Positions 9,001-12,000 of a stretch of DNA of 64,000 nt are shown piece by piece. Origin of the DNA: a plasmid. The position numbers are program-made. The stretch lies in assembly GCF_988242995.1 (NCBI RefSeq), contig NZ_OZ547044.1. One strand, 5' to 3'. The stretch's first letter is position 1, and every line of letters starts with the position of its first letter.

Positions 9001-12000
9001 ATGTCGCGTAGGGACGGAATACGAAAACGTAAACCCCCATTTTTGCGCCGCAGAGCGATGAATGCGTTGCTCATGGCGATGTGTTTTTATTACGATCCCC
9101 TGTCAAATAAAGTTCTGCGCTCACTCAGGGAGATTGCCCTGGAGTGCGGACTTGCAACTAAATCTCTTTCTGGCGAAGTGTCCATTACACGAGCAATCAG
9201 GGCACTGGAATCGCTGGAAAAAGATTTTGAATTTGTTGCCTGCTCATCGGATTGCTATTCAACTGCTGAGATTTTTTTCACCCCTAAGCTGTTCGAATTT
9301 CTTGGCGTATTTCCACTCTCTCTGAGCGAAGCCAGACTGAAGTGTCTGGCCGCCAAAAACAGCGGCAGGGAGAGTGCAGATGAGTAATGCGCACAATCCG
9401 CAACACTGGAGTCAGCTGGATATGGATGAACAGATCCGTTTCTGGCAGGGGGTAGAGGACGGCCATGTGGCATCTTTTCTGGTTTCCCCGGAGAAGAAAT
9501 CTACCCGTCGCCGGCGCGGCGAGCACTCCACAAAACCCAAATGTGAAAACCCGACCTGGTTTCGACCGGAGCATTACAAAAAACTGGGTGGCCAGCTGGG
9601 GCACGCCTATAACCGTCTTGTTCAAAAAGATCGCACCACTGGTGAGGTGCGACTGCGTATGCACGTATCGCTTCATCCGCTGTACGTCAGGGAACGTCGT
9701 CGGGCTGGCCGCCGGTATGGCTTCCGGCCGGAAAAGCAACGTCTGCTGGATGCTATCTGGCCAGTGCTGATCAGCTTCTGTGATGCCGGCAAGCTGACGG
9801 TCGGTATGTGTATTTCTCGTCTGGCAAAAGAACTCAGCCAGAAAGACAGTCATGGAAAAGTTATTCCGGAAACAGAGGTAACAGTCTCACGTCTGTCCCG
9901 GTTGATTGACGAACAGGTTCGTTTTGGTGTCCTGGCTGTATCTGAAGAAAATAGCTGGGACAGGGAATCCCGTACCTGGCTTCCTAAATACGTCTATATC
10001 ACCGCGTTAGGGTTTCAGATGCTGGGAGTGGATCTGGAAAAACTTGATGCGGAACAACAAAAAAAGCTCCGGCAAAGCGAAGAGCGTCGTCGTCTTATCG
10101 AGGAGGGGATTCTGCGTGAAGATGAGGAGATCTCCCCGTGTGCAGCACGTGAGCGCTGGTACCGTCAAAAAACTCTCGATGCACTGAGGTTCCGTCGGCA
10201 GCGTGGCGCCGAACGTAAACGAGCTAACCGCCTGGCCAGATATTCTCGTGAGCGCCAGATTCACGAAATGTCGCTTCATATCCTGAAGACAATGCCGGCA
10301 GACGAGGCTTACTGGTGTACAACGGAGCGGCTGCAGCAGCTGGCCATTCAGAACCTGTATCAGCGGCACTGTTGCAAATAGTCGGTGGTGATAAACTTAT
10401 CATCCCCTTTTGCTGATGGAGCTGTACATGAACCCATTCAAAGGCCGGCATTTTCAGCGTGACATCATTCTGTGGGCCGTACGCTGGTACTGCAAATACG
10501 GCATCAGTTACCGTGAGCTGCAGGAGATGCTGGCTGAACGCGGAGTGAATGTCGATCACTCCACGATTTACCGCTGGGTTCAGCGTTATGCGCCTGAAAT
10601 GGAAAAACGGCTGCGCTGGTACTGGCGTAACCCTTCCGATCTTTGCCCGTGGCACATGGATGAAACCTACGTGAAGGTCAATGGCCGCTGGGCGTATCTG
10701 TACCGGGCCGTCGACAGCCGGGGCCGCACTGTCGATTTTTATCTCTCCTCCCGTCGTAACAGCAAAGCTGCATACCGGTTTCTGGGTAAAATCCTCAACA
10801 ACGTGAAGAAGTGGCAGATCCCGCGATTCATCAACACGGATAAAGCGCCCGCCTATGGTCGCGCGCTTGCTCTGCTCAAACGCGAAGGCCGGTGCCCGTC
10901 TGACGTTGAACACCGACAGATTAAGTACCGGAACAACGTGATTGAATGCGATCATGGCAAACTGAAACGGATAATCGGCGCCACGCTGGGATTTAAATCC
11001 ATGAAGACGGCTTACGCCACCATCAAAGGTATTGAGGTGATGCGTGCACTACGCAAAGGCCAGGCCTCAGCATTTTATTATGGTGATCCCCTGGGCGAAA
11101 TGCGCCTGGTAAGCAGAGTTTTTGAAATGTAAGGCCTTTGAATAAGACAAAAGGCTGCCTCATCGCTAACTTTGCAACAGTGCCCGCCAGTACCAGCGCA
11201 GCCGTTTTTCCATTTCAGGCGCATAACGCTGAACCCAGCGGTAAATCGTGGAGTGATCGACATTCACTCCGCGTTCAGCCAGCATCTCCTGCAGCTCACG
11301 GTAACTGATGCCGTATTTGCAGTACCAGCGTACGGCCCACAGAATGATGTCACGCTGAAAATGCCGGCCTTTGAATGGGTTCATGTGCAGCTCCATCAGC
11401 AAAAGGGGATGATAAGTTTATCACCACCGACTATTTGCAACAGTGCCACAGAAAATTACCTGAACTGCGTCAACTCGGAGTCTGGCCGCGTGCGCGTGGA
11501 AGCAAAGCGGGCGAGCGAAGAATACGGGCGAGTGCTGCGGCGCTATCCGCTGAAACCCGGCGAGACGGTCGAGCGTCCGCAACGCGGGGAAGTCGTCAGC
11601 AGCTCCGGGGTTCTCCCCCCACTGGACCCAGGCGAATACTAAGCGCGGCGGTGTGTAATAGACGGAGCGCGAGGCGACTACTGGTCAGGGTTTGCGCAAG
11701 GCGGGTGTGTAATAGACGGGAGGGGATCGATCCGGCGATCCAGCCTGTGGATAGTCCGTCTATTACCCACCCGGTTCCGTCGTTTACCCACCCAACCCCG
11801 TCTATTACCCACCGGAAACCGTCTATTACCCACCGAGGGGTTCTATAAGCAACTGATAATGAAGGTAAATTTTGCCTTCTGATTCCCTAAAACTCTTTAA
11901 AACAAAAAAAACATATATAAAACGTGTAGCCCTGGGGAAAACAGCCCGTGGAATTATGGACAATCCGGCAAGCCGGATACCTGCCTAACCGCTTCGCGGT

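Follow-up and report, generated by a model that had tools for sequence, protein, structure and literature searches.

How does a complete insertion sequence come to be joined, base to base, to an inverted piece of another copy of the same element? The question is raised by a plasmid (NCBI RefSeq assembly GCF_988242995.1, contig NZ_OZ547044.1) of which a stretch of 64,000 nucleotides, here called the window, was analysed. Beside repA lies a complete IS26 (copy A), whose right end runs directly into the broken, internal end of a second, truncated IS26 (B, or the stump) in opposite orientation (Table 1). Our analysis makes it probable that this stump is the inherited scar of a Tnp26-mediated joining of a variant IS26 into an older IS26, accompanied by the loss of bp 264-820 of the latter.

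Table 1. Features at and around the IS26-IS26 junction (window positions).
Feature	Position	Strand	Remarks
IncFII(K)-type repA, cut by the left IR (IRL) of copy A	9374..10364	+	RepA_IncFII_LM, 302 bits
IS26 copy A, complete	10365..11184	+	820 bp; variant with T at IS position 61
IRL of copy A, 14 bp	10365..10378	+	GGCACTGTTGCAAA, read directly
tnp26 of copy A, intact	10428..11132	+	234 codons + stop
Right IR (IRR) of copy A, 14 bp	11171..11184	+	outermost base 11184 is the junction base
Truncated tnp26 frame from the native ATG (11384)	11166..11384	-	67 Tnp26 residues + ALLQS + stop
Truncated IS26 (delta-IS26 B)	11185..11447	-	holds IS26 positions 1-263 in the orientation opposite to copy A; position 61 is the canonical C; recognised by identity to IS26 from the terminal IR inward
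IRL of truncated IS26	11434..11447	-	adjoins umuC/samB remnant (ACAGAAAATTACC...)
Central segment of IS26-cld-IS26 unit	11448..15774	+	4,327 bp
Right-hand IS26 of IS26-cld-IS26 unit, complete	15775..16594	-	oriented as the truncated left-hand copy
Second T61-variant IS26	61000..61819	-	100% identical to copy A, inverted relative to it

The anatomy of the locus can be read directly from the DNA. Copy A extends from GGCACTGTTGCAAA to TTTGCAACAGTGCC as read in the window and is an IS26 by its length and by its two terminal IRs, both present and perfect. Its Tnp26 (234 aa) reaches 275.6 bits with the NCBIfam model NF033587 (IS6 family transposase; cut-off 125), and Pfam DDE_Tnp_IS240 spans residues 75-212, as befits a single DDE transposase; related records label the protein “IS6-like element IS26 family transposase”. 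The T at position 61, three nucleotides before the tnp26 ATG, defines a variant (T61) that is otherwise found in the window only in the copy at 61000-61819. Copy A has no direct 8-bp target-site duplication (GTATCAGC at IRL versus CGCCAGTA at IRR), which marks its history and not its identity; missing target duplications are usual for IS26 in resistance regions (PMC4471558).

The stump (11185-11447) is the reverse complement of IS26 positions 263 to 1 and matches canonical copies of the window, e.g. that at 18656-19475, at 263 of 263 positions; with a perfect match of 263 bp chance is no issue. The outer base of the IRR of copy A, 11184, meets it at 11185 with neither spacer nor microhomology, and the breakpoint is unambiguous, 11184 being a C whereas a continued inverted IS26 would need an A. 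The sequence-only reading had described a complete IS26 adjoined by an inverted IS26 left-end fragment and had taken this for an IS26-IS26 junction with an internal breakpoint, not for two insertions. Both descriptions hold, and the alignment to a complete IS26 that it had proposed fixes the fusion of the outer right-IR base of copy A at internal position 263. Its fragment came out one base short: the 262 bp ending at 11446, with an IR at 11433-11446, have to be corrected to 263 bp, 11447 and 11434-11447. It was also right about a Tnp26 N-terminal fragment on the minus strand, but the 78 aa given for it belong to a mechanical, TTG-started ORF (11166-11402), and the true ATG yields 72 aa.

The stump and copy A differ at one base only, IS position 61, where the stump has C and copy A has T, and in the related plasmid CP024483.1 the stump bears a further private SNP at position 58. 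Because of these two differences the stump is a different IS26 copy and not a duplicate of its neighbour. It keeps IS26 bp 1-63 upstream of the ATG and 67 native codons, followed by five foreign codons (ALLQS) that are read from the right IR of copy A. The peptide covers only positions 1-65 of the 202 positions of the NF033587 profile, with a score below the cut-off, and is thus a fragment; it consists of the N-terminal putative helix-turn-helix part and ends before the DDE domain, which starts at residue 75. Lacking the whole DDE domain, the stump cannot transpose and is a dead remnant. RefSeq labels the equivalent stretch in E. coli plasmids “IS6 family transposase, incomplete, missing C-terminus”, a partial pseudogene.

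What the stump once was can be seen in other plasmids. Raoultella plasmid NZ_CP026048.1 and IncR plasmid CP026852.1 carry a complete canonical IS26 whose IRL|ACAGAAAA boundary is that of the stump; behind it come the same 4.3-kb segment and another IS26 in direct orientation, i.e. an intact IS26-cld-IS26 unit. Since a complete IS26 occupies the same site elsewhere, the stump is the remnant of the left arm of this unit. The central segment holds the umuC/samB remnant, a thermonuclease-family gene, an IS66-family remnant, a cupin gene and the chlorite dismutase gene. The window does not contain two complete direct IS26 around cld, as a pseudo-compound transposon would have, the left copy being reduced to 263 bp. 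With only one complete direct IS26 remaining, the cld segment has ceased to be a unit bounded by IS26; the region is a decayed derivative and not a functional unit, and its mobility as an IS26-bounded unit has been lost in this lineage.

The junction is widespread. For counting we used a probe of 60 bp centred on the junction at E<=1e-12, a stringency at which half-matches fail; queries of 200 bp and 1,283 bp were uninformative for counts, as at least 5,000 records match them through IS26 with separate pieces joined. The search of related plasmids proposed in the sequence-only reading thereby returned the identical 60-bp junction from 198 of 72,556 PLSDB plasmids (195 from Klebsiella, 195 predicted conjugative) and, on plasmids in both cases, from 2 of 5,426 complete E. 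coli genomes. The PLSDB records stem from many laboratories and countries, and those that were opened are complete circular records; all carriers inspected there are pKPN3-307-like IncFII(K)/FIB(K) plasmids. Identical junctions within one plasmid family would be most simply read as a single old event inherited by descent.

We infer that the maker of the joint was Tnp26, and the following course of events would account for it. A umuC/samB-like gene would have received an IS26-cld-IS26 unit whose left arm was an older canonical IS26 (B). Tnp26 of a T61 IS26 would then have joined the IRR of that element to B, in a replicative “copy-in” reaction whose target lay between bp 263 and bp 264; the attack is placed there because the join coincides with the last base of the IRR, the point of 3'-end transfer by Tnp26 in replicative transposition. 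B bp 264-820 would have been lost together with whatever lay between both elements, so that the stump would retain the left IR of B, its upstream region and its first 67 codons and no catalytic domain. Junction and T61 IS26 would subsequently have spread by descent in the pKPN3-307-like IncFII(K)/FIB(K) plasmids of Klebsiella.

Three topologies can give such a joint, namely cis deletion, trans inversion and intermolecular cointegration. Trans inversion and cointegration both entail a reciprocal junction of IRL with IS26 bp 256 onward, in which the 8-bp target TACTGGCG is duplicated. This junction (IRL|TACTGGCG...) has 0 matches in 72,556 PLSDB plasmids, and the window contains no second partial IS26. 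As a deletion predicts exactly this absence, intramolecular cis transposition would be the most economical route; the intervening DNA would leave as a circle and no target-site duplication would arise. Intramolecular transposition of IS26 is known to delete adjacent DNA without telltale duplications when it occurs in cis and to invert DNA when it occurs in trans (He et al. 2015, PMC4471558), and in the window the junction lies exactly at the IS terminal base with no target duplication. The absent reciprocal junction is, however, negative evidence, and a later deletion would explain it equally well. We give the cis route about an even chance of being correct. A pre-deletion ancestor, with a T61 IS26, the DNA between and an opposite full-length B, was not found among the plasmids examined: the full-length target IS26 (NZ_CP026048.1, CP026852.1) and the T61 IS26 (in IncR plasmid CP052547.1, beside the same resolvase fragment as in the window and without the cld unit) never occur on one molecule.

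The other T61 copy and the repA flank bear on the order of events. The two inverted T61 copies bracket a resistance region of about 50 kb. In the related plasmid family ATTTTTTC precedes the IS26 beside repA. The other T61 copy is in inverted orientation both in the window and in CP024483.1; at its IRR side stands ATTTTTTC and then the sequence (probably the origin) that uninterrupted plasmids have downstream of repA; as read in the window, the IRR is followed by GAAAAAAT (60992-60999) and the inverted form of this region. The ATTTTTTC duplication is thus split between the inverted T61 copies, the normal repA-downstream sequence lying inverted about 50 kb away. The pair is inverted in the family (ATTTTTTC/GAAAAAAT) and becomes visible only by comparison with CP024483.1. 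Eight plasmids, NZ_CP083037.1 and seven others, show the simple-insertion form repA-ATTTTTTC-IS26(T61)-ATTTTTTC-downstream region; NZ_CP083037.1 is a flip isomer in which the IS26-stump junction adjoins a Tn3-family resolvase fragment instead of repA. The inverted ATTTTTTC duplication is the mark left by an in-trans event, or by a simple insertion after which the two T61 copies recombined. The inverted T61 copies and the inverted ATTTTTTC/GAAAAAAT pair therefore mean that at least one in-trans event or IS26-by-IS26 recombination also belongs to this lineage, so that more than one order of events is conceivable.

The left end of copy A has its own peculiarity. At window positions 10357-10365 a stretch of 53 bp (TGGAGCTGG...GCTATTTTTTC) is missing between repA and the IS26 left end when compared with every related plasmid examined. 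The loss takes away the ATTTTTTC target copy, the repA stop and the last nine codons before it; in place of these codons the IS supplies RHCCK, so that RepA now ends ...LYQRHCCK. The exact repA|IS26 IRL junction of the window has 0 matches in 72,556 PLSDB plasmids, and the loss looks like a second, window-specific IS26-mediated adjacent deletion, here at the IRL end. At the far end of the resistance region the IRL of the second T61 IS26 cuts a Tn3-family serine resolvase gene (window 61820-62210) that is without its 5' 176 bp (about 59 codons); the intact gene is present in the E. coli plasmid NZ_CP035856.1. The junction between T61 IS26 and resolvase fragment also occurs in IncR plasmid CP052547.1 and is therefore older than its present plasmid context.

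Among the alternatives to cis deletion, intramolecular transposition in trans is an unlikely one. A T61 IS26 would have attacked bp 256-263 of B, the intervening DNA would have been inverted, a second, inverted T61 copy would have arisen with its IRL on B bp 256-820, and this reciprocal junction would later have been deleted. The two inverted T61 copies that enclose the entire resistance region in window and family fit this scenario, as does the inverted ATTTTTTC target duplication of the repA-proximal insertion, an in-trans signature (PMC4471558). The IRL flank of the second T61 copy also reads CTCCCAAC in CP024483.1 but GCCAGATC in the window, which shows a remodelling of that end. Yet the predicted reciprocal junction IRL|TACTGGCGTAACCC is without a match in PLSDB, and the occurrence of the T61 IS26|resolvase-fragment junction in an IncR plasmid lacking the cld unit suggests an old junction and not the end point of a secondary deletion. 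The scenario also needs at least one event more than it explains. A course with inversion first and deletion second would have passed through an intermediate in which the IRR meets GCCAGATC and the 5' part of the resolvase gene; a 60-bp probe for this partner junction, which would settle the sequence of events, had no match.

Improbable, too, is an intermolecular copy-in, in which a replicon with resolvase'-IS26(T61) and one with IS26-cld-IS26 would have formed a cointegrate via a target within B, the other junction being lost later. Such a reaction would lead in one step to resolvase'-IS26(T61)-B(263..1)-cld, and the flip isomer NZ_CP083037.1 reads precisely resolvase'-IS26(T61)-deltaIS26-cld. 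Its parts also occur separately in small IncR plasmids, resolvase'-IS26(T61) in CP052547.1 and a complete IS26-cld-IS26 in CP026852.1. Against it stand the absence of the reciprocal junction from PLSDB and of any cointegrate intermediate among the plasmids examined; moreover, IS26 is reported by Harmer and Hall (PMC4676283) to favour strongly the conservative end-to-end reaction when the target molecule contains an IS26, which makes an internal attack the rarer event.

A joint made without transposase, by replication fold-back (template switching) or illegitimate recombination, would have duplicated part of the IS26 left end in inverted form, and a 263-bp inverted repeat spaced by 557 bp is indeed a geometry that such events can give. 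We nevertheless regard it as very improbable, as other plasmids have a complete IS26 at this site and the break matches the IS terminus to the base with no microhomology; a fold-back duplication of the neighbour itself was rejected, since the stump is not a copy of copy A (C61 versus T61, and the private position-58 SNP in CP024483.1). An assembly artefact, in which some of the eight IS26-related repeats in the window would have been collapsed or wrongly joined, had been raised by the sequence-only reading, and so repetitive a region (seven complete IS26 and a fragment within 64 kb) would lend itself to it; yet it has a negligible probability and is effectively refuted by the same junction in 198 independent PLSDB records and two RefSeq E. 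coli plasmids, by the SNP between stump and copy A, and by flanks that are collinear with junction-bearing records for more than 8 kb.

The remaining IS26 copies give a picture of the surroundings. The seven complete copies start at 10365 (+), 15775 (-), 18656 (+), 22076 (+), 25082 (-), 39382 (-) and 61000 (-). None of them is flanked by a direct 8-bp target duplication, and when the 8-bp flanks of all copies were compared, no pair within the window matched. Two direct pairs of complete copies delimit a 4,240-bp unit with aac(3)-II (18656-22895) and a 15,120-bp unit (25082-40201) that is collinear with the tet(A)/qnrB1 region of CP024483.1; their published counterparts are the pseudo-compound transposons PCT2 and PCT1 of pEBM1/pKBM1 (PMC10794504). 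A Tn3-family transposase segment of about 2.9 kb is duplicated (32603-~35540 and 40202-43141), its second copy beginning right at the end of the IS26 at 39382-40201, and is probably another IS26-associated duplication. The IS26-bounded region also contains a Tn4401-like module (47307-54982). Its blaKPC gene (48879-49760) is on the minus strand and scores 684.8 bits with the NCBIfam KPC model; the module also has an IS1182-family transposase, istB/istA of the IS21 family and a Tn3-family transposase.

Why has the junction persisted? Its persistence is fully explained by descent and hitch-hiking. One might also imagine that the stump expresses its 72-aa peptide, which has the putative helix-turn-helix and no DDE domain, as a DNA-binding protein that would bind IS26 ends and thereby damp or redirect Tnp26 activity, from a promoter that we assume to lie within the retained IS26 left end upstream of tnp26. 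If true, such a peptide would help to explain why the junction persists in a successful lineage with at least seven IS26 copies; we consider it highly unlikely.

The reading we prefer, a T61 IS26 joined by Tnp26 into an older IS26, reveals no new mechanism. An IS26-into-IS26 scar is ordinary; this one is already annotated in RefSeq, and the truncation of the left-hand IS26 is already in print in the passages of PMC7319535 that concern the unit. We found no discussion of this junction in PMC10794504, which treats the IS26 units of these plasmids, and almost nothing in the literature on insertions into IS26 or on partial IS26. The value of the junction, the fusion of a T61 IS26 to bp 263 of the left arm of IS26-cld-IS26, is that of a stable lineage-specific marker, useful for tracing pKPN3-307-like plasmids (here also with blaKPC) and for ordering IS26-driven rearrangements of resistance regions.

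Among known systems the closest in mechanism is the adjacent deletion by IS26 (He et al. 2015, PMC4471558), with which the window shares a terminal base fused to foreign DNA, the lack of an 8-bp duplication and the loss of neighbouring sequence; it differs in that the target is another IS26 and in that the deleted DNA or circle is not recoverable, so the route is inferred. In structure the locus resembles p6234-198.371kb and pKPSH11. The passages of PMC7319535 that describe these plasmids name the IS26-cld-IS26 unit and report that its left-hand IS26 is truncated in some related plasmids, the 4.3-kb cld/cupin segment lying, as in the window, between direct IS26 of which the left-hand one is truncated. 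This likeness is one of description, as those passages do not give the exact breakpoint, and identity at 263 bp is not implied; in the window the truncating IS26 additionally abuts a shortened repA. A close relative in sequence is CP024483.1, a pKPN3-307-like IncFII/IncFIB plasmid, to which the window is 100% identical over positions 1-10364 and 99.99% identical over 10364-18655, with the 53 bp between repA and IS26 missing in the window. The window finally shares the IS26-bounded modules aac(3)-II, blaOXA-1/aac(6')-Ib-cr and tet(A)/qnrB1 with CP024483.1 and the pKPN3-307_typeA-like IncFII(K)/IncFIB(K) multiresistance plasmids of Klebsiella pneumoniae (PMC10794504), and in addition carries the Tn4401-like blaKPC segment, which is absent from the compared part of CP024483.1.
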